In this document: positions 6,130 to 57,497 of the stretch, one piece after another
How positions within the stretch are numbered: the first letter of the stretch is position 1
Layout of the letters: each line of letters opens with the position of its first letter
Assembly (NCBI GenBank): GCA_017473615.1
Contig: JAFUKL010000024.1
Span: 4,029-68,028, forward strand
From: Muribaculaceae bacterium
Lineage (GTDB): Bacteria; Bacteroidota; Bacteroidia; Bacteroidales; Muribaculaceae
Reading direction: 5' to 3'
DNA length: 64,000 nt
Translations under genes and position numbers: made by a program
The notes under the pieces: model-generated
What the model saw: the letters and a program-made list of their open reading frames with translations, nothing else
Told to the model about the DNA's origin: nothing
Databases searched by the model: none

Positions 6130-6203
6130 TAGCGGGAACGAGAATTGAACTCGTGACCTCCGGGTTATGAATCCGACGCTCTAACCAACTGAGCTATCCC
6201 GCC
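6130..6203 (-). tRNA. tRNA with CAT anticodon (tRNA-Met, or tRNA-Ile2 if modified with lysidine)
   Basis: The reverse complement reads GGCGGGATAGCTCAGTTGGTTAGAGCGTCGGATTCATAACCCGGAGGTCACGAGTTCAATTCTCGTTCCCGCTA. It shows the acceptor stem, D arm (GCTC/GAGC), anticodon loop TTCATAA and T arm (ACGAG TTCAATT CTCGT). CCA is not encoded. Confidence 0.9.
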
Positions 6204-7344: not shown

Positions 7345-8547
7345 TTATAAGTTGCAGTTTTTGAGGATTTTAGCAGGAATAGCAGCTTTGTTTACCACGA
7401 TGTCTATGGTTTTGGCAAGGAAATATGCCTCAGATACATAGATGTAGCCGTCATAAATTTGGTTGGTATCCCATGAATTCTTTACCTTATAATATTTGTT
7501 CCCTTCTTGATCTATGGCAGAACCTACAATTACCATACCGTGGTCATCGGTAGTAGTGTGGTTGTCAAAAGTCTCTTGACGTGATTCCTGTGTAACGGTT
7601 ATTTCTTCGGTAGGTCCGTTAAATTCATATTTTTCTTTTTCTCTGTCTTTATCCGATAGCTTGGTCCATCGTGCAAGTTCAGTACCTTCAAGAGAATCTG
7701 CAGTCTTTTCTTTCGGCATTAGCGCCACACCTTTTTTCCATTGGAAACCGGGTTCACTCACATCGGCTGCCCATGCTACAGAATAACCGTTTTTAATGGC
7801 GTTGTCGACAATTTCTTTTAACTCTTCGATTTTTACGTTGTAGTATTCCCCCCATATCCAGTTATCGGCAACTTCAAGAGCGAAAGGCGCATTGAACGGA
7901 TGGTGAGTGAACGAGGTGAAAGGTATATAGTCATCAATGTTTATTCCGAGAGAAGCCGCATAGCTCTCAGGTGTATATTCCTTTCCTTCGTGAGTGAATT
8001 TTTCCGGAAGTTTCCCAAGGTAGGCATCCAAAATTCCTTTAAATCCGTTAAACCATGCTGTCGACAATTTGCGGTTGGGATTTTTGGCAATTCCATTGAT
8101 ATAACCTTTAAGTCCGGCAATCATTTCATAATGGTTATGTTTTGTATCACCATAATTAAGTCCTGTATATACTTCTTCAGGCACCATTCCGTACCGTTTC
8201 CACACATAAGGAACGTCAAGGGTACTGCCACCTTGTTCAAAGTTGATTTTTTGATCCATGCGAATGTGTTTCATAGCCTTGTCGGCATAGCAGTGATATA
8301 CAACGTACATTTCGCTCAAATCCACCTCTTTTCCGGTTTTTTTCAATATTTCATTCTCCAAAAAAGAATTGGTAGAGAAACACCAACATGTTCCGGTCTT
8401 GTTCTGGTCTTTAACCGATGTTTGCTTTACTATTTTTACATCGGTAAACGAGAATCCGGTACTATCTTGATTGGTAGTTTCTTGAGAATTGGCTGAAACT
8501 CCGGTTGATAGGAGAGCAATAATGCTCAATAATACATTTTTCTTCAT
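7345..8547 (-). CDS. pepC: Secreted C1B-family cysteine aminopeptidase (aminopeptidase C / bleomycin-hydrolase-like)
   Basis: It has a signal peptide (MKKNVLLSIIALLSTGVSA), the active-site Cys context QNKTGTCWCFS, and the length and C-terminal His region (DDHGMVIVG) typical of PepC. Confidence 0.85.
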   Translation of the reverse strand: MKKNVLLSIIALLSTGVSANSQETTNQDSTGFSFTDVKIVKQTSVKDQNKTGTCWCFSTNSFLENEILKKTGKEVDLSEMYVVYHCYADKAMKHIRMDQKINFEQGGSTLDVPYVWKRYGMVPEEVYTGLNYGDTKHNHYEMIAGLKGYINGIAKNPNRKLSTAWFNGFKGILDAYLGKLPEKFTHEGKEYTPESYAASLGINIDDYIPFTSFTHHPFNAPFALEVADNWIWGEYYNVKIEELKEIVDNAIKNGYSVAWAADVSEPGFQWKKGVALMPKEKTADSLEGTELARWTKLSDKDREKEKYEFNGPTEEITVTQESRQETFDNHTTTDDHGMVIVGSAIDQEGNKYYKVKNSWDTNQIYDGYIYVSEAYFLAKTIDIVVNKAAIPAKILKNCNL

Positions 8548-9493: not shown

Positions 9494-10051
9494 TTATTTA
9501 TTGTTACTTTCATTGATGTTCTTCATGAATAATTTTTCAAGAAGTTCCATGTCAATTGAAATATCTTTGTTGTTCTTTAATTCCTCATACAGAAGTTTCA
9601 AATAGTCGTTTCCCTTGATTTCAAGTACCATATAATTAGTGTATTGTCCCGTTTTTTCATCCTTAGTCCAACGGTCACACACGATAGTCGCATTGGTAAT
9701 AGTCTTGTTGACGGTTACTTTGGTTTTATCGTTAAGTAGTGACTTGGAAACGGCTGACAATTGTCCTTCAGATAGGGCAGTTGTATAGTCCTCTGTGGTT
9801 GCGTTGACGGTTCTGGAAAGTGTTGCTGCTAAATCGGCTGAAGCCGCAACTTGCGCCTTTTTGCGTGCTGAGGTTTCGCTATCCGATTTTCCTGATGCCC
9901 ACGCACGTATTACGCCTTCACCGCTTTTCAATTCGGAACAAGGCATTACGAATGTTTTTATAGGGCTTTTTTCTACTTTTTTTGAAGACCCGCAACTGCT
10001 TAAACATAGAGTTCCCAAAAGAACAGCTACGTATAAAAGATGAGATTTCAT
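9494..10051 (-). CDS. LPP20-like lipoprotein (185 aa), last gene of the nine-gene operon
   Basis: Lipobox LCLSSCGSS. The helical segment SARKKAQVAASADLAATLSRTV resembles the LPP20-family A..A...A...LA pattern. Confidence 0.7.
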   Translation of the reverse strand: MKSHLLYVAVLLGTLCLSSCGSSKKVEKSPIKTFVMPCSELKSGEGVIRAWASGKSDSETSARKKAQVAASADLAATLSRTVNATTEDYTTALSEGQLSAVSKSLLNDKTKVTVNKTITNATIVCDRWTKDEKTGQYTNYMVLEIKGNDYLKLLYEELKNNKDISIDMELLEKLFMKNINESNNK

Positions 10052-10061
10052 TTTGTTTTGT

Positions 10062-11405
10062 TTAATTTAAGTTTAACTTCTTTATTTGATTGGGTAAATT
10101 ACGGTTAACACGCTTCATAACTTCCCTTATGCACTGTGCAATTGTTTCATTTGCTTTCTTGTGTACGGGAGAGAGAACTTTAACTCTGTCAACCGAATAA
10201 TCCAGCAAGAGTTGCTCACTTTTATTGTTATAAATCTTAATAGTCAAAGTACAATAACAGGTGTTCAAATCGTAGCTGCCTCCTGTAACGGTATTACCGT
10301 TCTCTATTACGCTTGATATTTCAATGAAACATTGAGCAGCGTCGGGGGCTTCGGTTACAACGAAATGGTTATTGGTGAACAAACTCCTTAGTTGTCGCTC
10401 GATACCTTCCAAGTCGTTGTCGTCGCTGATGTGAATATAAGCTGTTACCGGACTGTTCTTTAATTGAATGGTAACTTTAGCCGATGGCATGGCTTGATTC
10501 TTGAGCAGTTGCTTATAGGCTTTTGGCAAGGAGTTCAAGAAAGAGTCATCAATGGAAATACGTACTTCCTGTACCTTGTCTTTGGATGTGATGTTTGTAA
10601 TGTAAAATTCGGCTGTTCCGGTATGGTCGGTCTCTATAGCATCAGATACAGCACCGCTGCCGGAAATAAATTCGGCTTTAAGTTTTACGTTAGGAATCAC
10701 ATTACCGTTTTTTGAAAGGCAACCGGCAATCGGTGTCGGGACAGCCTTAAATGACTCTCCCTCCACAAGAGTTACATTAGTTGTAATAGCCATGTTGCTG
10801 AAAACGTTGACATAAGCAGAGTAAAGTTCTGAAGGTATATTTATTTCATGACCGTTTTCTATGGTTGTCAAGTTCATAAATACCCAAGGCTCTACGGTCT
10901 CAAGTCCTTTCCCATACAATTGTACCGCTTGCGAAAGATTCATCGTATTTTCGGCATTCTGCCCTTTATGCAAATAGTCAAGTCCTGATTGTATTGCATG
11001 TTTTCTGCGGGATTCGGCATTACGAGCATAAGTGTCCTTGTCGAGAACGTAATATACATAGTATGTTTTATCGGTTTTGTATGTATCTTTCAGTTCTTGA
11101 CCTTCGAGCCATGCTGCAAGTGAACTCTTGATTTTGTCCTCAAACATGTCACGGGACTTTCCGTCTACGTCTATAAGATGCAAGAATGAGTTGTTCTCTA
11201 CCTTGACGGCAATTTGTGACGAAATATCAGCCAAGGCGTTCTGGGTAGCTTTCTTCATATAGTCGGCATCGGAAACGGATGCCATGCCTATACCTACGTA
11301 TTCCTTATCTGATATCGGGTGTGTTGTAACCCAATCAGGCACATTTGCTGCGATACCGAAACATACGCATACCGAAAGCAGAAAAGTTGATAAAATCTTT
11401 TGCAT
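10062..11405 (-). CDS. LPP20-domain secreted protein (447 aa)
   Basis: It has a signal peptide. PDWVTTHPISDKEYVGIGMASVSDADYMKKATQNALADISSQIAVKV matches the LPP20 lipoprotein domain signature. The C-terminal ~250 aa are unassigned. Confidence 0.75.
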   Translation of the reverse strand: MQKILSTFLLSVCVCFGIAANVPDWVTTHPISDKEYVGIGMASVSDADYMKKATQNALADISSQIAVKVENNSFLHLIDVDGKSRDMFEDKIKSSLAAWLEGQELKDTYKTDKTYYVYYVLDKDTYARNAESRRKHAIQSGLDYLHKGQNAENTMNLSQAVQLYGKGLETVEPWVFMNLTTIENGHEINIPSELYSAYVNVFSNMAITTNVTLVEGESFKAVPTPIAGCLSKNGNVIPNVKLKAEFISGSGAVSDAIETDHTGTAEFYITNITSKDKVQEVRISIDDSFLNSLPKAYKQLLKNQAMPSAKVTIQLKNSPVTAYIHISDDNDLEGIERQLRSLFTNNHFVVTEAPDAAQCFIEISSVIENGNTVTGGSYDLNTCYCTLTIKIYNNKSEQLLLDYSVDRVKVLSPVHKKANETIAQCIREVMKRVNRNLPNQIKKLNLN

Positions 11406-11423
11406 AACGTTCTGTATTAAAGT

Positions 11424-12683
11424 TTAGAATTTTGATACCGTTAAAATGATTGTTCCACCTTCAACACGAGAGTCGGCTTGAATACCTTCATCTCTTAAAT
11501 CTCTTTTAAGTTGAGATAAGAATTTAAACGGATTCATTTTTCTGCCTTTTTTATCGGCTTTAGGTATCATGATATAATCAAAAATCACTTGTTCGTCAAC
11601 GACACCTTGCATGTGATAATCACCATTGTGAGCGTTATCGTCAAGCCAGTACATGACGAAATCGGCAACGCTGTCGCCATTGGTGCATGCCGGGTCTTGC
11701 AGGCTCATCAATGTATTGCCCGCATCGTTAAGCAATGTGATCTGTAGAGATGTACGGGTAGGCTCGGAATAATACTTCAATATCTGTTCCAAGAAAGGCT
11801 TTATGTTGTCTTCTACGGCATATCGGCACAACGCATCCATAGGAGCAGTGCGGTAATACTGTTTTGAACCGCCCGTTTGTGAACCCCAATCGGCATTGGT
11901 GGCAACGTCATGAGCATGAAGAATCAATGATACTCGGCTACCTAAAGATGTGGTTTCTTTTTTCAAGTCTACAACTACGTAGACATCAGCATTGGAACTT
12001 GTGAGAAGAGTTCTGTCATTGGATTCCACTGCACCGGCATTCTCCTCATATTGTCCGCGTCGTTCTGCGCTTTGAATGTGTGACAATAGATCCATAGTGC
12101 GTATATCGCAATTGTTGAACCCTTTTTTAACTTCTTCCACAGCCGTGCGGCGGTCGAAGTCATTCTCCAAAATGGATTTATAGCTTTCTCCGTCTTTCTT
12201 GAAAGGAACTACAATTACCGTGGGTTTCGGCTGAGTCTGTTTTATAGTTTCTTGCTTTTCCCGGTAACCGGTATTCTTTCTTACGTCATTTATAAGTTGC
12301 GTAAGGCGTATGGTGATTCTATAAGTACCTTGGTGAACACCTCCCGATTTTTTTGGTTTAACATATTCCTCTGTTTCAACCAAGTAATGAACATATCGTT
12401 TGTTGAAATCGAAAAATGAATCGGTATATTTCTCATTAGCTTTAACGACAAGCGGTTTACCGTCATCCACCCCTTCTACACCCTGAAAAAACAGGGTGTA
12501 GAATAGAGATTGAATGGCATTTGCTTTACAACCGTCTTTACCGTCACCTACACCTGCCGATAAGAAGGTTCCTCTTACACCGCCGGTGGATTCCAAGCTT
12601 ACTATCGACAAATATTCTTCTGCTTTAACGGTGTTTATGCAGATGAATGACAGCAAACAAAGTATAGCAAATATTTTTTTCAT
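11424..12683 (-). CDS. Secreted protein (419 aa), an LPP20-like N-terminus plus an alpha/beta module; function unknown
   Basis: It has a signal peptide (MKKIFAILCLLSFICINTVKA). The gap to both neighbours is 10-18 nt. The central segment PTVIVVPFKK...AVEEVKKGFNNCDIRTMDL resembles LpoB/CsgG/TolB-N-type alpha/beta modules. Confidence 0.65.
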   Translation of the reverse strand: MKKIFAILCLLSFICINTVKAEEYLSIVSLESTGGVRGTFLSAGVGDGKDGCKANAIQSLFYTLFFQGVEGVDDGKPLVVKANEKYTDSFFDFNKRYVHYLVETEEYVKPKKSGGVHQGTYRITIRLTQLINDVRKNTGYREKQETIKQTQPKPTVIVVPFKKDGESYKSILENDFDRRTAVEEVKKGFNNCDIRTMDLLSHIQSAERRGQYEENAGAVESNDRTLLTSSNADVYVVVDLKKETTSLGSRVSLILHAHDVATNADWGSQTGGSKQYYRTAPMDALCRYAVEDNIKPFLEQILKYYSEPTRTSLQITLLNDAGNTLMSLQDPACTNGDSVADFVMYWLDDNAHNGDYHMQGVVDEQVIFDYIMIPKADKKGRKMNPFKFLSQLKRDLRDEGIQADSRVEGGTIILTVSKF

Positions 12684-12693
12684 ACGGTTTTAA

Positions 12694-13557
12694 TTAAAAA
12701 ATACCAAATGTCTTTTGCTCTTGAATTTGCTTGACTTTTAGAGGCTCTTTAGCTTGAGCTTCTTCGTCAAGGGCTGCATATTTTTCTATGATTACAAGAG
12801 CTTCTTTTTGTTTCTTTGTTACTTTACAATAAGATAAGGTTTCATCAACAACTTCTTCCACTTTAAGCTGAGCAACTTCTTTGTAAACAGTGCGTCCTGC
12901 TCTTGTGGTAGCATCCATGATTGCAAAATAATCGCCTTTCTTAACTCCGTGGCTTGAGCCTACATTAATGTAGCACTTTTGCAATTTTTTCTTTTTAGCT
13001 AAATAATCTGAAGGATTTACGGTTCCTTCGATAGGCAATATTTCTATTATTAATTCTTTTAAGTCAAGATCAATCATGTCGGCTGCTCCTGCGATGGCTT
13101 TTTCTTTAGTGTCATATAATTCAAGCGCATCCATTAAGCCGCCAAGACCTGAAGGAGAGTGGTCAAAAGCCTTAGTACCTACTGTGGTCTGTTCTTTTGC
13201 ATCGGTTACGGTAACGGTGTACTTAAGTACACAACCGTATTTGGTTTTTCCGTCTTTGACTTTTTGGTTGGTAGAAACGGTAAGTACATTGGCGTTCAAA
13301 ATGAAATCTGCCATTTCTTTTTGGCGTTTCTCAAGTTCCGGTTCAAGCCCGCTGATAGTAACAGCATCAATAAGTTCAAATCGTCCTGTTTTTGTCAATC
13401 CGTCAAGAATAGCTTGGCGAACCAATACTGCATTATCATTTGATACAGCATCGGCTTTATTGATTTTTTCAACAAAAATACGTGGTTTCTCACTTTGTGC
13501 TTGTGCAAAAACTGCGGCACATACCATCATTGTAATTAGGAAAATAACTTTTTTCAT
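12694..13557 (-). CDS. CsgG/LpoB-like periplasmic protein (287 aa)
   Basis: It has a signal peptide. RIFVEKINKADAVSNDNAVLVRQAILDGLTKTGRFELIDA resembles the CsgG/LpoB N-terminal pattern. The C-terminal beta-barrel-like motif is INVGSSHGVKKGDYFAIMD. Confidence 0.65.
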   Translation of the reverse strand: MKKVIFLITMMVCAAVFAQAQSEKPRIFVEKINKADAVSNDNAVLVRQAILDGLTKTGRFELIDAVTISGLEPELEKRQKEMADFILNANVLTVSTNQKVKDGKTKYGCVLKYTVTVTDAKEQTTVGTKAFDHSPSGLGGLMDALELYDTKEKAIAGAADMIDLDLKELIIEILPIEGTVNPSDYLAKKKKLQKCYINVGSSHGVKKGDYFAIMDATTRAGRTVYKEVAQLKVEEVVDETLSYCKVTKKQKEALVIIEKYAALDEEAQAKEPLKVKQIQEQKTFGIF

Positions 13558-13593
13558 AAAAATAAATTGTTAATTAGTTCGTAAATTCAAATA

Positions 13594-14754
13594 TTATAAT
13601 TTTGCTTGAGCTTCGGCACTGCCTAATTTGGCAGCCTTTTTGAAGTTCTTTCTTGCAAGCATATCGTTTATACCTACGTTGCCGCAACCGCTTTCATAGA
13701 TTATTCCCAGCATGTAGTAAGCTTTTGCACTTCCCGACTTGCTGAAATGACCTATAGCTTCAAGTCCTTCGCCGGCTTCGTATGCTTTCATCCCTGCTTC
13801 ATAATTTGCATCCGGCTTTTCTTCGGCAGCTTTGACCGTATTGTTCTTTTCACTTGCCGGTTCTTCGGTGTAAACGGTTTGGGGCTCTTCTTTAACAGTC
13901 GGAGCCGGTTCGCTTTGCGGAACTGACGCCTCTTGAGTCTCTTGGGCTGTCGGTTCCATATCGTTCTGTTTGTTTTCGTTACCTCCTGATAGGGCGAAGA
14001 ATCCGATAATTGCTGCTAATACAATAATAGCTATAAACCATTTCATGTTGCTGCCTCCTCCTGTCTGTTTGTGTTCAACTGATTTTGTGTTATCTACCGG
14101 TGTGAAGTCCTTTGCTCCGACCTGCGAAATTTTTGTGTTTGGTGTACGTGCCGAAAAGGCTGCAGCTGTTGCAATGGGTGTGACTTCGGGCTGTACGGCT
14201 TTGACAGCCGGTTTTAATTCGGCTGTGAGTTCTTTCTCGATTTTTTCAGTACAGTCTTCCAAGTCGAGCCGGTTAGCCAATGAATTCATGATTTGTCGCT
14301 CGGTAAATCTTATCTCACCGTTTGTAGCAAGGTATAGTTTCTGAAATTCTGTGCGGTATTCATTAATGGCTTTCTTTTCGCACTCGATACAGCGGTTTTT
14401 ACCTTTCACTTTACATTCAAGGCATATTTCCTTACCGCATTTTGGACAACGTGCATGTTTCTCTTCAAGAGCGTTACCGCACACTTCGCAATATTCGGCT
14501 TTCTTCTCGTTCATAACGTAAGTGGTGTTATGGTTTACGGTAGAAGAATTGTCGACATTGGAAGTGTTTACATTGTTATGGGTATTGGATGTCTTGTTGA
14601 CACCACCCATAATATTGGCGCGTGCTCCTGCTCCTATAATGGACGTTTCTTTATCCTCGCCCGATGTTGGAATTTCAGTGCCGCAGTTTTGGCAGAATCG
14701 TTCGTCAGATTCTATCTGTGTTCCGCATTCAGTGCAAAATTTTTCTTTGTTCAT
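13594..14754 (-). CDS. Bitopic membrane protein: N-terminal Zn-ribbons, one TM helix, C-terminal Sel1-type repeat
   Basis: CTECGTQI..FCQNCGTEI; CEVCGN..CPKCGKEICLECKVKGKNRCIEC; TM helix WFIAIIVLAAIIGFFAL; Sel1/TPR-like C-terminus AKAYYMLGIIYESGCGNVGINDMLARKNFKKAAKLGSAEAQ. Confidence 0.8.
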   Translation of the reverse strand: MNKEKFCTECGTQIESDERFCQNCGTEIPTSGEDKETSIIGAGARANIMGGVNKTSNTHNNVNTSNVDNSSTVNHNTTYVMNEKKAEYCEVCGNALEEKHARCPKCGKEICLECKVKGKNRCIECEKKAINEYRTEFQKLYLATNGEIRFTERQIMNSLANRLDLEDCTEKIEKELTAELKPAVKAVQPEVTPIATAAAFSARTPNTKISQVGAKDFTPVDNTKSVEHKQTGGGSNMKWFIAIIVLAAIIGFFALSGGNENKQNDMEPTAQETQEASVPQSEPAPTVKEEPQTVYTEEPASEKNNTVKAAEEKPDANYEAGMKAYEAGEGLEAIGHFSKSGSAKAYYMLGIIYESGCGNVGINDMLARKNFKKAAKLGSAEAQAKL

Positions 14755-14783
14755 CGCTCTTTGATGTGTTATTGATTGGTTTT

Positions 14784-15056
14784 TTACTTTTCTTTTTTCT
14801 GAATAATTGTTTCGGAAGGTTCATCCGAAGATATTGATGTTACACAAAAGTGTTCCGTTTGTTCTTCCACACTTCCCGTAACATATACTTTCTTACCGTG
14901 ATAGGGGGCAAAGAATGTATCATCGACCGGCATGCAGTTCGTTCTGTAAAGAGTGTATTCTTTACCGTCATTGCATTTCAAAAGAGCTGAGTGCCCCTCT
15001 GATTTGGTTCCGATATTCTGCATGCTATATTCAATTATTCCGAAAAGAGTTATCAT
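14784..15056 (-). CDS. Small cytoplasmic protein (90 aa), function unknown
   Basis: The ORF sits between two operon genes with 20-29 nt gaps. I recognised no motif. Confidence 0.55.
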   Translation of the reverse strand: MITLFGIIEYSMQNIGTKSEGHSALLKCNDGKEYTLYRTNCMPVDDTFFAPYHGKKVYVTGSVEEQTEHFCVTSISSDEPSETIIQKKEK

Positions 15057-15076
15057 TGCTGTCGTGTGATTAAAAA

Positions 15077-17416
15077 TTACTTAATGGAAGAACCGCAATT
15101 TTCGCAGAAAGCGGCATCGGTATCAACCTTTTCTCCGCATTCCGAGCATACTTTTGCCGATATGACTTTTTCTTCTGTGGGCTGTTGTTCCTCAGGTCTC
15201 GGATTGTTATTATCTGCACTTCTTTGTGGTTTTGGTTGTTTTGCGGTATTATCGCGAGTGGTATAATCCAAAGCGCGATCATAGGCGGTATCCATTCTGC
15301 TTTCTTGGCGGCGGATACGTTCGTCTTGTTCACGCAGTAATCTGTCTTTTTCGTCCAGTTTTTCCTGTGTGCGTTGGTTGTTGTCGGCACTTCTTTGAGC
15401 CTGCATACCGCTTGCCATGGACATCATGTTATTCATCATTTCAAACATGCGTGCTTTGGTGTCCTGCTGATCGGCATCACGTGCAGCTCGTTCGGCATCT
15501 ATGCGTGCGTCCAATTCACGTCTTTGAGCTTCCAAACGTTCTGATGTTTCACGCTCGCGGTCAGCATTGTACTTGTTTTGAGCGTATGCAACAGCACCGT
15601 CGCCGCCGTTCAATGCCCATACTTTTTCATCAGAAAGCGTCTGCGCATTTTCCCACTTCATGCGTTCTAATTCTTCAGCATTCTTCAGGCGATTCTGTTC
15701 CATTTCAGCCTCATGCTTGCGCTGGTTTTCCCGAGATTGTTCTTCTGCGGCTTGCATTGCAAGGAATTGACGGAATTGTGCATCATCGTCTTCACGTTTG
15801 AGGTCGTGCTGTCGTTTAACGTCATTATAGGCAATGTCACGCTTGCGTTGCTCTAAATCAAGTTTGGTATCTTCTATGGCGCGTTGTTGTTCCAATTTCT
15901 TATTGAAACGGCTGTCGGCATAATCGTCACGTAATCCTTGTATTTCAAGTTCCTTTTTGACGATTACTACTGCTTTTTCGGTTTCACCTTCAAGACGAAC
16001 CCTTTCAAATTCTATTCCATCGCGTAATTGCATCATTGCTAAGGATACGTTACGCTGATGAGAATTTGTCTTTACTTGATGAGCAAGAGTTTCAAGCTCG
16101 TCCTGTCTGATAAGACCTGTCTTGTATATTTCAGCCAATGCAGCTTGTGTCTCATTCTCGGTTTTCGCTTCACGTATCTTTCGCTCGTTAAGTAACAAAT
16201 GCTCGAATTTAAGCAATTCATCCTCGTTAAGCAGTTCTTCGTTGTGCTGATTCCTGTTTATGGCATTAAGTTTTTTTCTTAAATCAAGTTCAGTTTCAGC
16301 TTGGTGAATCTCTTGTGCATTGACTGCATCGGCAAGGCGATTTTTGAAATCATTTGTGCGGAGCAGGTAATCAAGTTCTTTCTCAGACAGGTATAATTCC
16401 TGACTTAATTGTGAAAAACGCTCCAAGTCTTCGCTTTTAGCCGAAATTTCAACGATACGAACCACAGAAAGCCCGAAGAACGTCTCTGCAGCAACTGCAT
16501 TTATACGGTCTTTTAATAGAGTATGCAGGTCGGTAGGAATGCGGTTTGATTCAAGTTCGGTATCGTATAGTGCATCTTGCAGAACTACGCGTATCGTATC
16601 AGCTATTTCATCAACAATTAACGCTGAATTAAGCTTTTGTTTGTCAGTCAGGTAATGTAGTATGAATCGTTCCGGATCGGAAATTTTGAAATAAGCGTTT
16701 ACACCTATACCCATTTTGATGTGGCGGGTTTGTATCTGCATCGGAACGAAGTTCTTATAATCATCAAGATTACTTTGCTTAGCTCCTATCATTAACGGAA
16801 ATGCCTTATCCAAGAGTATTATGACAGAAAAAGCCGCACCTTTTTCGGCGTTTTCCAAAATCACTTTCTGCTGATGCAAATATATTTCCTCTTCTGTCTT
16901 AACACCTGTGTTGTTCTTTTTTGTGCCGGAGAAGAGGTTTACTATCATTTGCCAACCTTTTTTCAACATTTTCCCTACAGAAAAGGATGAAGGCGAAGAG
17001 GTATTGGCCAAATCGTATGTTCCTCCGCTTATAGATGCTATGGTACGTCCGTTGGCTCTTATGTAGGCAGTTGTTCCTTCGGGAACTATTATACCTTGTA
17101 TTTTATTGTATGTCTCAAATTCAGATTCAGTTATTACGCGGGCTACTTGTCCCGGTTGAACGTTCCAGTAAATTCTGCCTTTTGCCGTATTCATGTCGTC
17201 CGGAACTTGAACGGGAGATGCTTTGGTCTCGGCTTGAGCGTTTACCTCAACCGTTGCTACGGTTAATTTATATCCGCATCGGGTGCAGAATTTTGCTCCC
17301 GGCTTCAATGGTGCATTGCATTGAGGACATAGGGATGAGGTCTCAATTTTTTGTCCGCATTGGGTGCAGAATTTTGCACCTTCGCGAAGTTCTGAATTAC
17401 ATTTCGGACAATTCAT
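15077..17416 (-). CDS. Zn-ribbon / SPFH (YdjI, COG4260-like) / long coiled-coil / Zn-ribbon protein (779 aa)
   Basis: Two N-terminal Zn ribbons (CPKCNS..CTQCGQKI; CPQCNA..CTRCGYKL). The segment GRIYWNVQPGQVARVITESEFETYNKIQGIIVPEGTTAYIRANGRTIASISGGTYDL is typical of YdjI/'virion core protein-like' SPFH proteins. About 350 aa are E/R/Q-rich coiled coil. The C-terminal Zn ribbon is CSECGEKVDTDAAFCENCG. Confidence 0.8.
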   Translation of the reverse strand: MNCPKCNSELREGAKFCTQCGQKIETSSLCPQCNAPLKPGAKFCTRCGYKLTVATVEVNAQAETKASPVQVPDDMNTAKGRIYWNVQPGQVARVITESEFETYNKIQGIIVPEGTTAYIRANGRTIASISGGTYDLANTSSPSSFSVGKMLKKGWQMIVNLFSGTKKNNTGVKTEEEIYLHQQKVILENAEKGAAFSVIILLDKAFPLMIGAKQSNLDDYKNFVPMQIQTRHIKMGIGVNAYFKISDPERFILHYLTDKQKLNSALIVDEIADTIRVVLQDALYDTELESNRIPTDLHTLLKDRINAVAAETFFGLSVVRIVEISAKSEDLERFSQLSQELYLSEKELDYLLRTNDFKNRLADAVNAQEIHQAETELDLRKKLNAINRNQHNEELLNEDELLKFEHLLLNERKIREAKTENETQAALAEIYKTGLIRQDELETLAHQVKTNSHQRNVSLAMMQLRDGIEFERVRLEGETEKAVVIVKKELEIQGLRDDYADSRFNKKLEQQRAIEDTKLDLEQRKRDIAYNDVKRQHDLKREDDDAQFRQFLAMQAAEEQSRENQRKHEAEMEQNRLKNAEELERMKWENAQTLSDEKVWALNGGDGAVAYAQNKYNADRERETSERLEAQRRELDARIDAERAARDADQQDTKARMFEMMNNMMSMASGMQAQRSADNNQRTQEKLDEKDRLLREQDERIRRQESRMDTAYDRALDYTTRDNTAKQPKPQRSADNNNPRPEEQQPTEEKVISAKVCSECGEKVDTDAAFCENCGSSIK

Positions 17417-17444
17417 AATATATAAGTTTTTGTGTTTGTTATCG

Positions 17445-19133
17445 TTATTTAGTCATTATTACTTCTTTTATTTTGCCGTTTTCTGTGGTTCTTACTATGT
17501 ATGTCATGGATATTTCAGAACCGGGCAGAACGTCATAATTAAATCTCAATTCTTTACTGCCATCGGCGTATTTTACCTTAAATACACTGTCGGGATTCCG
17601 CGGCTCTATTCCGTAATACTCGTAGAGATGGCTATTGATGCTGTTACGTATTTGTGAAATGTTCTTATCCACATTTTTACGAACCAAGTTAAGTATAGAA
17701 TTGCCGTTGCCGGATAAATCCAATTGTTCCATTTTGCAGTCGTATGCTTTTCCGCTCATTATGCCTTTGGACTTGTCCAACGTCTTTGGTCGGTCTTGGA
17801 ACATTTCGGGCGTGACTGCAAATAATGATGGGTCGCCGAAAAGGTTGAACTCCGTAACTGTTGATATTGTGTTAGGATTTATTTCGCAATCTCCTTCTTG
17901 GTTCAAAACCATATCTCGGGCAATTAATAAAGCTTGTCCTGCGCTGTATCCGCCTAATATTGAACTGATAAATCCCAATGCCATTGTATCGGCATATACA
18001 GGTAATACCGGAGTATATTCAGTGATAGAAACAGGATCTACGTTTCCCCATGCGATGCGTGACGAACCTAAAAACAACAGTGCTTGGGCATATAATGCCG
18101 AAAGTAACATGCTGTGCCGCTTGTCAAGACCTATGAATCTGGCACCGTAGCATGCTTCGCATACTATGATGTTTGGAACACGGCAGGAACTTATATGCTC
18201 GGGTAATAAAACGGGTATAGAGACTTTCTGCCCTTTATGTGCTCCGAACCATCCTCTTGCTTCAAGGGCGTTACATCCGTGCAGATTATAATAGTATAGA
18301 TGCGCCTTGTCATGAAAAACACGGTTTACATTTTCGGTAGTGATACCGGGTGACAGTATCAAGCGGCGGAAATAGCAATCGGCTGATATGTACCCGTCCA
18401 GATTCCTTAATTTATTGGCTGCAATCAAATCATCTATGACTGTAGCAGAAACATTTTTCCAATTAGGGTCACATTGACCGTAGGCTTCTGTAAGCGGGAT
18501 TCCTTCTGCACCTTTTACGGCTCTTTCCAAATAGTTACGGAAATCTTCCGATGTCGTATCTTCTCCTATCGGCAGACGTCCTACAAGAAAAGCCTGCTGA
18601 TACCTGAAAATCTGTGCATTTTGCAGCATAGGCATCATGTTTTTGCCGTAGGGGAATGCGTATAGTATATCGGTGTCTATCGTTTTGTCTTTTACATCGA
18701 TGCAATAGTGCGGAATACGAGGCATCGGAATGATGTCGTTACCACCTATTATAAACAGATAATTGATTTCCCGCTTGTCGGCTTGACGATTGTATGCATC
18801 GGTTAATACATCCATGTAGCCGGATATGCCGCTATCGGGATTGGGCGGTGTAACTATATTGTCGGATACATAGTTTCCTGTATCAACCAAGCTGTATGAA
18901 ACGCCGTAACTTTGTTTTACACCAATATAGTATTCCAGTAGTTTATGAACGGTATGTTCTTCTGTGCGCAATTTGGCGGCAAGACGCTTCACGTCGGTAA
19001 ATATGATACCGGATGCGTAAAAATTATTTTTGACCGCTGAATCCTGCGTATCCTCAGCTATCTTCGTTCCGCATTCAGGGCAAAATATCGCATCCTGTTC
19101 ATTTATCTTATAACCGCATTCCGGACAGTACAT
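17445..19133 (-). CDS. Zn-ribbon fused to a clan-CD (gingipain C25 / legumain / caspase-like) cysteine peptidase domain, cytoplasmic (562 aa)
   Basis: The N-terminus is CPECGYKI..FCPECGTKI. NYLFIIGGNDIIPMP resembles the C25 YLLLVGD..IP strand. Candidate His-Cys dyad: YYNLHGCN, then 43 aa later NIIVCEACYG (compare legumain EACESG and caspase QACRG). There is no signal peptide. Confidence 0.7.
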   Translation of the reverse strand: MYCPECGYKINEQDAIFCPECGTKIAEDTQDSAVKNNFYASGIIFTDVKRLAAKLRTEEHTVHKLLEYYIGVKQSYGVSYSLVDTGNYVSDNIVTPPNPDSGISGYMDVLTDAYNRQADKREINYLFIIGGNDIIPMPRIPHYCIDVKDKTIDTDILYAFPYGKNMMPMLQNAQIFRYQQAFLVGRLPIGEDTTSEDFRNYLERAVKGAEGIPLTEAYGQCDPNWKNVSATVIDDLIAANKLRNLDGYISADCYFRRLILSPGITTENVNRVFHDKAHLYYYNLHGCNALEARGWFGAHKGQKVSIPVLLPEHISSCRVPNIIVCEACYGARFIGLDKRHSMLLSALYAQALLFLGSSRIAWGNVDPVSITEYTPVLPVYADTMALGFISSILGGYSAGQALLIARDMVLNQEGDCEINPNTISTVTEFNLFGDPSLFAVTPEMFQDRPKTLDKSKGIMSGKAYDCKMEQLDLSGNGNSILNLVRKNVDKNISQIRNSINSHLYEYYGIEPRNPDSVFKVKYADGSKELRFNYDVLPGSEISMTYIVRTTENGKIKEVIMTK

Positions 19134-19162
19134 GATTTTTCCTTGGTTGTGTAAAACAATTG

Positions 19163-20539
19163 TTATTTCTTCATGTATTTTTCTCTCTTTTCTGTCACTT
19201 TCTTGACATAATTCCGCGTCTCTTGAGCCGGAAGATTGACAATCAAGTGGTTGTATAGTTGAGAGTACTCATACTTGTTGATTAGCGCAAATATCTTTTT
19301 GCTCAGATTCCTTGTGTTGTCGAATGCTCGGCACACATTGCCCGGACCGGTATTGTATCCGGCAATCACGCATAACCGTTGACAGTGCGTATCGTTTACA
19401 TCTGAGAATGTATTCATAAGTATCCTTAAATAAGCCGTACCCAACTCAATATTGTTGCGAGGGTTGTATAGATAGGCAGGTTCAGGTATCCATGATTTCT
19501 TGTACACATATTGATATGCCGTAGCACCTCCATATTTTGGGACTAATTGCATCAATCCGTATGCGTTAGCCCAACTTTTGGCTTCAGGATTGAACGCCGA
19601 TTCCACTTCCATAACGGCAAAAATCAAAGGTTGTTCCACTTGGAATTTTTTAGAAAATTCCGCTACAATGTCTTTATATTTATATGCGTTTTTTGAAAGG
19701 TTGTCGGCAACGAGGCTCATTTGTACTTGTACTACTTTACGGCTTTTTCCGTCATTCCCGATTATTGATGATGTTTTCTTGTTGATTTGTTGCGCAATCT
19801 TTTGAGCCAAAGAAGACTTGTTATTCTTGTCTTTAAGCGCATTTGCTCTTTCCTCGGCTTTCTTACGAGCATTATCCCGCTTTTCGGCTAAAGAACTTTT
19901 TGAAACGTCGGAACTCTTTTTATCCTTAGCGTTGTTGACAGATGTACCGTTGGAATTACCCTGTGATTGGTTTACAGCCAACGGCTTGCCTTTTACTGTG
20001 GGTTTAGGTGGAGCCGGACGGTTATTGACTGCAACTGCAACCGTGTCCAAATCAAACATTGAGAAATCTACAATATTATCAAGAATCGGAGCTTTGGTTA
20101 GCGGTTCTGATTGGTTAGCTGCCTTGAATGGATTTGATGAGCCTCGGCTGTTTAGTAATCGTTCGATTGTTTTTGCCAAACGACTGTTTATGGCTGAAAT
20201 ATCGGAATTTTCGTCTTCATCTATTGCCACCTCAATCAGAATATCTCCTTTCTCGAAATTGACTATGGAGCGCGAGTGGAAATCGGTATCATATTCGACC
20301 CATTCTTTGGGTGTGTCGTTTATGATTGTGTCGCCACCCCAAATATTAGTAATGGATTTTACGAATTGTTCATAGTCGGCAAGAGCTTGTGCTTCGTATG
20401 CTGCGAAATCCGAACGTTGTTTTGCCGCATCTTGCTCAAAACTCATTTTCATCGAATCCAGTGGGGTAGATGACGTTTGGCTGAATGCGCTTAACATACT
20501 TGCCAAGAATACTATTATGATGAGTATATATTTTCGCAT
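19163..20539 (-). CDS. MltC-like membrane-bound lytic murein transglycosylase (458 aa), first gene of the operon
   Basis: It has a signal peptide. The SLT domain carries the catalytic Glu context VMEVESAFNPEAKSWANAYGLMQL and AGYNTGPGN. The central linker is low-complexity and K/S/N-rich. Confidence 0.85.
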   Translation of the reverse strand: MRKYILIIIVFLASMLSAFSQTSSTPLDSMKMSFEQDAAKQRSDFAAYEAQALADYEQFVKSITNIWGGDTIINDTPKEWVEYDTDFHSRSIVNFEKGDILIEVAIDEDENSDISAINSRLAKTIERLLNSRGSSNPFKAANQSEPLTKAPILDNIVDFSMFDLDTVAVAVNNRPAPPKPTVKGKPLAVNQSQGNSNGTSVNNAKDKKSSDVSKSSLAEKRDNARKKAEERANALKDKNNKSSLAQKIAQQINKKTSSIIGNDGKSRKVVQVQMSLVADNLSKNAYKYKDIVAEFSKKFQVEQPLIFAVMEVESAFNPEAKSWANAYGLMQLVPKYGGATAYQYVYKKSWIPEPAYLYNPRNNIELGTAYLRILMNTFSDVNDTHCQRLCVIAGYNTGPGNVCRAFDNTRNLSKKIFALINKYEYSQLYNHLIVNLPAQETRNYVKKVTEKREKYMKK

Positions 20540-57129: not shown

Positions 57130-57491
57130 GATAGTATGGCGGCTTGTCGCTCACCGGCATGTACGGTGTGAGGAAAGTCCGGGCAACGCAGAGCATCATA
57201 TTTCTTAACGGGAAGCTATCGGTGACGGTAGAGCAGCGTGACAGAAAATAACCGCCTTCTTTGCGGGAGGTAAGGGTGAAAATGTGAGGTAAGAGCTCAC
57301 GGGTCGCTATGGCGACATAGTGGCGGCACGTCTTATGAGTTGCAAGGTCAAGTATATCGGCATTTAAGGGTTGCTCGCCCATTGCCGAGGGGTAGACTGC
57401 TAAAGCGTAATGGCAACATTGCGTTCAGATAAATGACAGGCAGGTATTCGTTTGAGAATACTTACATAACCCGGCTTATAGCTGTACTATC
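57130..57491 (+). ncRNA. rnpB: RNase P RNA, bacterial type A
   Basis: Universally conserved GAGGAAAGTCCGGGC, ACAGAAAATAACCGCC, GGTAAGGGTGAAA, GTAAGAGCTCAC and ACATAACCCGGCTTA. P1 pairing is gatagta (57130) / tactatc (57485-57491). Confidence 0.92.
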
Positions 57492-57497
57492 AAGTAT

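Follow-up and report, generated by a model that had tools for sequence, protein, structure and literature searches.

The question raised by the locus described here is what a peptidase of the C25 family could be doing inside a bacterial cell. To our knowledge, all of the C25 peptidases characterised to date (the gingipains and PorU) are secreted virulence or sorting enzymes. The gene in question, g2, was found in a 64 000-nucleotide stretch of DNA (the window) from a member of the Muribaculaceae (assembly GCA_017473615.1, contig JAFUKL010000024.1). It occupies positions 17445..19133 on the minus strand, with an ATG start and a stop codon at 17445–17447, and Pfam and its homologues identify its product of 562 amino acids (aa) as a zinc-ribbon C25-like cysteine peptidase. 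The gene is the second of nine on that strand (window positions 9494–20539, spacing 10–36 nt) and is followed by g3, whose product is predicted to have an SPFH fold. The best explanation of the locus includes a predicted, catalytically competent intracellular cysteine endopeptidase of C25 and clan CD, and on balance, by a modest measure, it is probable that this enzyme serves a cytoplasmic SPFH scaffold, linked to the cell envelope, as its dedicated protease.

The domain composition of g2 was determined with Pfam. An N-terminal ribbon of four cysteines (Cys4) occupies aa 2–24 (YCPECGYKINEQDAIFCPECGTK; 19062..19130, minus strand; Zn_Ribbon_1, E=1.8e-6). The Peptidase_C25 region, delimited by Pfam, the secondary structure of an AlphaFold2 model and the layout of RgpB (PMC4357240), extends over aa 40–445 (17799..19016, minus strand). 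The Pfam match itself, with 39.9 bits against a cut-off of 23 (E=4e-10), is a single stretch from aa 66 to 437 that spans positions 13–372 of the 374 in the profile. In 18 diverse relatives Peptidase_C25 was the sole family matched by all 18 (best E=9.9e-14), and no match to the CHAT or C14 models of Pfam was obtained among them. The C-terminal domain (aa 466–562; 17448..17738, minus strand) matched no family; one long helix and four strands are predicted for it, and L481, R485 and Y533 are conserved. Kinship of this domain with the small protein g4, described below, was ruled out (hhalign probability 0.07). Homologues of g2 numbered 657 in a 90 %-clustered database, and 872 cluster representatives were recovered from a 50 %-clustered library at E<=1e-3. 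The combined signal from motifs, Pfam and homologues is far beyond chance, and the gene is real and conserved. Several homologues carry the NCBI names 'C25 family cysteine peptidase' or 'zinc-ribbon domain-containing protein'; because orthologues are publicly labelled as C25 family peptidases, the domain call itself is known. The original prediction, made from the sequence alone, had proposed a zinc ribbon joined to a C25-like clan CD peptidase domain, and Pfam bears this out. The motifs quoted in it are present: CPECG...CPECG at aa 3–22, YLFIIGGNDIIPMP at aa 125–138, YYNLHGCN (His285) and NIIVCEACYG (Cys328).

Conservation was assessed in two alignments. A1 comprises 28 sequences of the g2 group with 44–64 % identity, and the wide alignment combines g2 with 150 representatives, down to 27 % identity, of which 147 were scored at the columns of the putative catalytic dyad. 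On the strength of conservation and the AlphaFold2 model, the predicted catalytic residues are His285 (NLHG; codon 18279..18281, minus strand), directly after the strand at 279–283, and Cys328 (EACYG; codon 18150..18152, minus strand), at the end of the strand at 321–328. Their separation by 43 residues, as originally claimed, was verified at the level of the codons. Conservation of the pair had been set beforehand as a test capable of refuting the proposal: both residues are invariant in all 28 sequences of A1, and each is kept in 146 of the 147 representatives. The accompanying glycines are similarly retained (Gly286 in 144/147, Gly330 in 147/147). Since Cys325 is variable among relatives, the nucleophile candidate in NIIVCEAC is Cys328. 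In clan CD the histidine precedes the cysteine and the residues of the dyad are situated at strand ends (PMC4357240), and the placement predicted for g2 is this known arrangement. The four cysteines of the ribbon are at least 90 % conserved in A1, and a CxxC...CxxC motif is found in 118 of the 150 representatives. The D-x-x-Y...vGRLP motif of the N-terminal subdomain is also conserved (Asp155 in 145/146, Arg186 in 145/145), which provides further support for the C25 assignment.

The AlphaFold2 model of g2, built on the alignment, has a predicted local distance difference test score (pLDDT) of 82.7 and a predicted template-modelling score (pTM) of 0.86. Four strands (40–46, 78–84, 124–129 and 182–187) make up its N-terminal subdomain, and strands 217–221, 279–283, 321–328, 351–357 and 429–433 its caspase-like subdomain. 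This predicted order, a 4+5/6 layout, agrees with the two subdomains of RgpB, one N-terminal and one caspase-like. When the model was compared with the PDB using Foldseek, the best neighbours were Csx29 (TPR-CHAT, 7y9x) and SAVED-CHAT (8tl0), both with E=1.5e-3 and with probabilities of 0.94–0.97. The rest of the top 50 were mostly entries for caspase-3, -6, -7 and -9, with template-modelling scores, by target length, of 0.39–0.50. There is thus moderate support for a predicted fold resembling those of solved clan CD peptidases.

The determinants of specificity for the P1 residue in clan CD are the residue after the first caspase-like strand, the residue two positions before the cysteine (Cys-2) and the loop after strand 5; in RgpB, P1-Arg is bound by Asp163, located where the first helix starts, and in caspase-7, Gln184 at the Cys-2 position contributes to P1 specificity (PMC4357240). 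In the model of g2, Asp222 (QCDPNW; codon 18468..18470, minus strand) opens the helix at 223–232, after the first caspase-like strand at 217–221, and Glu326 (codon 18156..18158, minus strand) lies two residues before Cys328. Both are invariant in A1. By topology, Asp222 would occupy the place of Asp163 in RgpB, and by analogy the g2 subfamily probably cleaves after Arg or Lys. The column of Glu326 contains Glu in 98 of the 147 representatives; Asp222 and Glu326 occur together in 62 representatives and neither occurs in 37 (Fisher p=8e-7, not corrected for phylogeny). These data suggest that distant subfamilies differ in specificity.

The features of g2 point to a cytoplasmic location, as had been claimed at the outset. 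A hydropathy scan revealed no hydrophobic 19-mer in the protein, and no type IX secretion system (T9SS) tail (Por_Secre_tail) or other NCBIfam match was detected. Because the open reading frame (ORF) was taken from the earliest start codon that follows a stop and cannot be lengthened upstream, a hidden signal peptide is precluded. Among the 150 representatives, 148 have neither a signal nor a transmembrane (TM) helix; a hydrophobic 19-mer was observed in only two, as a single internal or C-terminal stretch in each, and an N-terminal signal in none. The lack of export signals across the representatives argues that the whole g2 clade is intracellular, which sets it apart from every characterised C25 enzyme. 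The N-terminal Cys4 ribbon stands in place of the signal peptide and prodomain of the gingipains.

Some members of the family depart from the domain arrangement of g2. In one metagenomic relative (L088, 5195–6978) the zinc ribbon is a separate ORF of 59 aa just before a C25 gene that lacks the ribbon, representing either a split gene or a frameshift. A subfamily of 790–870 aa (P0216, P0218, P0225, P0230, P0232, P0234, P0236, P0248, P0251, P0254, P0257 and P0260) begins with a highly charged coiled coil, e.g. MDFNERMEQMRRDME..., in place of the ribbon. The nearest C25 orthologue among species-representative genomes is at most 48 % identical to g2, and both of the peptides used in the search occur in g2. 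A protein 96 % identical to g2 was found in one read-archive assembly only. The source lineage of the window apparently lies outside the genome set.

The product of g3 (15077..17416, minus strand) is a protein of 779 aa with two N-terminal zinc ribbons (17264–17416), an SPFH domain (about 16433–17194, from AlphaFold2 and Foldseek), a coiled coil and a C-terminal zinc ribbon (15086–15154). Only the ribbons are detected by Pfam, whose Band_7 models miss the SPFH domain entirely, and the hydropathy profile reveals neither a TM helix nor a signal peptide. The AlphaFold2 model of the first 372 residues (pLDDT 80) matched 30 PDB chains at E<1e-3 in Foldseek, nearly all of them SPFH proteins, the last being the major vault protein. 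The top match was HflK/C with FtsH (9cz2, E=2e-6), and human stomatin, prohibitin, erlin, flotillin and QmcA-YbbJ were among the others, down to E=1e-3. A helix at 329–371 of the model runs on into a long, charged coiled coil. The g3 family was also aligned, with an hhalign probability of 95.8 %, to a protein with Pfam Band_7_1 and C-terminal zinc ribbons, i.e. a protein of the YdjI type. As judged from its model, g3 is an SPFH-fold protein, and the description of the neighbouring gene in the original prediction is thereby upheld, though Pfam is silent on it. The two N-terminal ribbons sit where canonical SPFH proteins carry a membrane anchor. Homologues of g3 are annotated publicly only as 'zinc-ribbon domain-containing protein'; since Pfam is blind to the fold, the link between protease and SPFH protein is hidden in current annotation.

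Gene linkage was examined in 83 loci from Bacteroidales genomes, including those of Bacteroides, Phocaeicola, Butyricimonas, Odoribacter, Alistipes, Rikenellaceae, Paludibacteraceae, Alloprevotella and Mediterranea. It is apparent that the protease and SPFH genes are strongly linked. The g3 gene directly follows the C25 gene in 81 of the 83 loci, the exceptions being one truncated contig and one locus (L018) without g3. A reciprocal look-up from two g3 homologues placed a C25 gene directly upstream in both. As for the other genes, g4 is present in 66 of the loci, g5 in 67, g6 to g9 in 56–69 and g1 in 53. Bacteroides hominis retains only the protease, the SPFH protein, the small protein and the TM/Sel1 protein, and in Alistipes-like genomes the lipoprotein genes are situated upstream rather than downstream; the core is therefore taken to be g2–g5. 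The original suggestion of a possible partner of the peptidase in either the neighbouring SPFH protein or g4, the 90-aa ORF, finds support in this strong and conserved linkage.

The association was also observed in distant, rearranged loci. An SPFH gene of the g3 type is encountered within a few genes of two very distant C25-like variants, P0229 and P0377 (hmmsearch E about 1e-98 and 1e-102). P0229 (L085, 379–10645) is 1114 aa in length and consists of an N-terminal AAA+ ATPase (SpoVK/CbxX-like) fused to the C25-like domain; its cluster also contains a leucine-rich repeat (LRR) protein beside the SPFH gene. P0377 has a ribbon and a 250-aa insert. The Sinorhizobium meliloti megaplasmid pRRI128_2 (L084, 6338–8130) bears a distant C25-like ORF of 515 aa, for which the plasmid table has no annotation, and after it a small ORF resembling g4 (E=1.5e-9); no SPFH gene was detected nearby. 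The persistence of the linkage in such loci indicates an ancient association of the protease with the SPFH protein and the small protein.

The other genes of the operon suggest a link with the envelope. The first gene, g1 (19163..20539, minus strand), encodes a lytic transglycosylase that resembles MltC and carries a signal peptide (Pfam MltC_N and SLT, the latter with E=4.7e-27); against the NCBIfam MltC model it scored E=7.5e-55, yet below the model cut-off. The fourth, g4 (14784..15056, minus strand), encodes a strand-rich, small cytoplasmic protein of 90 aa, from a family of about 80–90 aa with a G-[ST]-K-S-E-G motif (A3 alignment). The idea that g4 is the OB-fold of NfeD, the classical partner of SPFH proteins, gained no support, since it matched neither NfeD nor any PDB entry; it resembles DUF5818 only weakly (10 of 26 members match, best E=3.6e-4). 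Many g4 orthologues (e.g. L012, 14055–14441, and L022, 14145–14561) end in a basic tail (RLPRKLKKQLKK). The fifth gene, g5 (13594..14754, minus strand; 386 aa), encodes a protein in which N-terminal zinc ribbons are followed by a linker, a TM helix (aa 234–260; 13975–14055) and a periplasmic region ending in a Sel1 repeat, according to Pfam and hydropathy. Sel1 proteins occupy its position in L045, L086 and L087.

Downstream of g5, on the same strand, lie genes for four exported proteins, namely g6 (FlgT/LpoB-like, 12694–13557), g7 (DUF6175, 11424–12683), g8 (LPP20/FlgP family, 10062–11405) and g9 (a lipoprotein of 185 aa, 9494–10051). By hydropathy, signal peptides are present in g1 and g6–g9 and lacking in g2–g4, and g5 has a single TM helix. 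In profile searches of the PDB, g6 gave a weak match to FlgT chains (E=0.036) and g7 gave none. This exported set is reminiscent of families that form periplasmic rings at the flagellar motors of Vibrio; the host group is non-flagellated. A ribbon of the PF13240 type (CxxCG...FCxxCG) is found once in g2 (19062–19130), three times in g3 (17264–17416 and 15086–15154) and at least once in g5 (about 14670–14740), for five or six copies in total.

Genes for an OmpA-like protein, a C1 peptidase and an acyltransferase flank the operon; they were excluded from the system for want of conservation in the 83 related loci, and the limits of the operon were set on this basis. The C1-family cysteine peptidase (aminopeptidase C/papain-like; 7345–8547, minus strand), which has a signal-like N-terminus, is located just downstream and is not conserved with the operon. 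A scan of the operon for promoters and terminators returned counts equal to those of shuffled sequence, Bacteroidales promoters being outside the coverage of the scan. The window also contains an RNase P RNA gene (class A, 225.9 bits; 57131–57494, plus strand) and a tRNA gene (6130–6203, minus strand), which indicates an ordinary chromosomal setting.

SPFH scaffolds are thought to organise membrane proteolysis via FtsH or NfeD, and SPFH-protease partnerships recur, as in HflK/C-FtsH, QmcA-YbbJ/NfeD, stomatin and its partner protease, and prohibitin-m-AAA. YdjI-like SPFH proteins form membrane rings or cages. In the mechanism favoured here, g3 would be a soluble scaffold of the YdjI type, arranged as a ring or cage at the membrane, for which g5, with its ribbon, TM helix and Sel1 repeat, is the probable anchor in the inner membrane. 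The PF13240-type ribbon common to g2, g3 and g5 may unite them as an assembly or targeting module. Positioned at the scaffold, g2 would cut its substrates after Arg or Lys, and these might be components of the scaffold, g4 or client membrane proteins. Through g5 the pair of protease and scaffold could be coupled to the periplasmic lytic transglycosylase and to the FlgT-like, LPP20 and DUF6175 proteins; such coupling to the exported module would make envelope assembly or the homeostasis of envelope stress the most likely function. The relative fused to an AAA+ ATPase lends support to a degradative logic similar to that of FtsH.

The system so envisaged was compared with those already described. 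Like RgpB, Kgp and PorU, all of Porphyromonas gingivalis (MEROPS C25, clan CD), g2 matches PF01364, over the full profile; as in RgpB, histidine and cysteine, in that order, are predicted to lie at the ends of adjacent strands, four-strand and caspase-like subdomains are predicted, and an acidic residue (Asp222) is found where, by topology, RgpB has its Arg-binding Asp163. It differs from the gingipains in having no signal peptide, prodomain of about 200 aa, Ig-like domain or T9SS C-terminal domain, and in possessing a cytoplasmic zinc ribbon, another C-terminal domain and a wholly different genomic context. With HflK/C-FtsH, stomatin/QmcA-NfeD (YbbJ, STOPP) and prohibitin-m-AAA it shares the coupling of a protease gene to that for a protein with an SPFH fold and an extended coiled coil. 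Among the structural neighbours of g3 are these very complexes (9cz2, 7wi3 and 8z5g), and the AAA+ fusion of P0229 recalls FtsH inside HflK/C. Unlike the proteases of those pairs, however, which are zinc metalloproteases or ClpP-like serine proteases, g2 would be a clan CD cysteine peptidase; moreover, g2 and g3 lack TM helices, bear zinc ribbons and are predicted to act at the cytoplasmic face.

In Bacillus subtilis, YdjI, which is soluble, has the SPFH domain and bears a zinc finger at its C-terminus, depends for its arrival at the membrane on YdjG, which begins with a CPxC ribbon, and on YdjH; loss of these membrane partners disturbs cell-wall synthesis under stress (PMC8581546). Compared with the PspA-YdjG-YdjH-YdjI system, g3 is likewise soluble with a zinc finger and g5 likewise has a ribbon followed by a TM helix, as in YdjG; the likeness is one of architecture only. 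Both systems are linked to cell-wall functions. The YdjI systems are, however, without a clan CD protease, and g3 has two additional N-terminal ribbons and escapes detection by Pfam Band_7. Lastly, the CHAT proteases (Csx29 of Craspase and SAVED-CHAT of CBASS) and the bacterial caspase homologues are also intracellular clan CD enzymes and provide the best Foldseek neighbours; they are regulated by partner proteins. In contrast to them, g2 belongs to C25, matches neither CHAT nor C14 and has no sensor domains or defence context.

That last comparison bears on the kind of role toward which the original prediction leaned. As the effector of an anti-phage or conflict system, g2 would be a latent protease that infection or membrane damage switches on and that, through cleavage of essential or pore-forming proteins, brings about the death or arrest of the cell, in the manner of the CHAT proteases of Craspase, CBASS SAVED-CHAT and gasdermin systems. 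Such a role is considered distinctly unlikely. Its attraction lies in the identity of the two best structural neighbours (Csx29, 7y9x, and SAVED-CHAT, 8tl0, both proteases of defence systems), in an apparently patchy distribution among species and in the variable architectures (the AAA+ fusion and the LRR neighbour). The PADLOC models, however, returned no match for the C25 protein, g3, g4, g6 or g1, the sole match below E=1e-3 being that of g5 to PD-T4-6 (E=5.1e-5), over a low-complexity stretch of linker and TM helix. Neither 50 697 phage records nor the viral contigs of IMG/VR yielded a homologue, and the single distant plasmid match (Sinorhizobium) has an unrelated context. The operon contains no SAVED, Cas, cyclase, STAND NTPase or gasdermin module; its neighbours are instead envelope lipoproteins and a lytic transglycosylase, in an order conserved across Bacteroidales families, and the window is ordinary chromosome, marked by the RNase P RNA and tRNA genes, with no mobile-element context. 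The conflict system raised as an option at the outset was thus not corroborated; a role in a stress system is plausible. Improbable in the extreme is export of g2 by a non-classical route, to act, like the secreted gingipains, on periplasmic targets such as the lipoproteins of its own operon or proteins associated with peptidoglycan. The characterised C25 enzymes are all extracytoplasmic and five products of the operon are exported, but g2 lacks a signal peptide, a TM helix and a T9SS C-terminal domain, none of the 150 representatives has an N-terminal signal, a Cys4 ribbon at the very start of the chain is characteristic of proteins of the cytoplasm, and the obligate partner, g3, is soluble and ribbon-bearing as well.

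Other alternatives retain the partnership with g3 and change what g2 does within it. A protease or transpeptidase that matures or assembles the products of its own operon (the SPFH protein, g5 or g4), in place of one devoted to quality control, can be envisaged; it would make a single licensing cut, or else ligate, as do PorU, itself in C25, and further transamidases of clan CD. The archaeal stomatin partner protease cuts stomatin itself. Clan CD enzymes often act via limited proteolysis (PMC4357240), the linkage to g3, g4 and g5 is tight and ancient, and the variable basic tail of g4 would suit an enzyme specific for Arg or Lys. That tail, however, is missing in the copy of g4 in the window and in many other lineages, no conserved cleavage motif was found, and the AAA+-fused variant favours degradation coupled to unfolding over a single cut, so that this explanation too is judged unlikely. 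The weakness of all the structural matches would be compatible with a catalytically dead pseudo-peptidase, whose sole part in the SPFH complex would be structural or that of an adaptor, but retention of His285, Gly286, Cys328 and Gly330 in 144–147 of 147 representatives, down to 27 % identity, is unexpected for a pseudo-enzyme, and there is very little likelihood that g2 is one.

With the dedicated protease of an SPFH scaffold thus preferred, it must be acknowledged that several observations weigh against it. Every Foldseek match of the g2 model is weak, none being below E=1.5e-3, and no gingipain is included within the top 50. A search of PDB sequences with the full-length profile gave, apart from zinc-ribbon matches, only a marginal match to RgpB (E=0.42), which was lost when a catalytic-domain profile from 18 diverse members was used; a single-sequence search of the PDB with g2 gave nothing relevant. 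Because the Foldseek and profile matches are weak, the C25 assignment rests on the Pfam model. Asp222 is missing in about half of the distant representatives, so that the preference for a basic P1 residue is perhaps limited to the g2 subfamily. In L018 (10001–12133) the C25 gene is followed by g4 and the SPFH gene is missing, the sole case of its kind among loci with sufficient flanking sequence. Nor is coupling to the envelope universal, for in Alistipes, Paludibacteraceae and B. hominis the genes for the periplasmic proteins and for the transglycosylase are either absent or relocated. Unlike the YdjI operon, the nine operon proteins include no Pfam match to PspA/IM30 (ESCRT-III). Finally, the distribution in Bacteroidales appears patchy, with 148 matches in 185 579 species genomes in a pattern-limited search, which fits an accessory or conflict role as well.

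The literature library that was searched yielded no description of the g2 family, the operon, DUF6175 or a link between SPFH proteins and clan CD proteases. What appears to be new, then, is a large intracellular branch of C25, a cryptic SPFH protein as its obligate neighbour and the location of both in a conserved envelope operon. A more ambitious proposal, offered tentatively and regarded as doubtful, is that the nine genes specify an unrecognised trans-envelope apparatus of the Bacteroidales, with an SPFH cage and its own protease inside, their parts all recruited through one shared type of zinc ribbon, a Sel1 bridge, and a ring or disk in the periplasm. In such an apparatus the ring or disk, formed from the FlgT-like, LPP20 (FlgP-family) and DUF6175 proteins, would pass the peptidoglycan by means of the dedicated MltC-like transglycosylase. 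The condition of the outer envelope might in that case control proteolysis within the cell, or the control might run the other way. The wider clade, with its 872 cluster representatives, some of them fused to AAA+ ATPases, would on this view form a class of clan CD proteases not recognised before, acting inside the cell and coupled to SPFH proteins.

The intracellular C25 branch is common in gut Bacteroidales of humans and animals (Butyricimonas, Odoribacter, Alistipes, Bacteroides and Phocaeicola), and the lytic transglycosylase and the FlgT/FlgP-like lipoproteins hint that this phylum, which has no flagella, possesses an envelope machine yet to be characterised. If the reading preferred here is true, a clan CD cysteine protease would constitute a third, mechanistically distinct class of partner protease for SPFH proteins, and the locus would offer a tractable bacterial model for the control of a caspase-like enzyme by an SPFH assembly.

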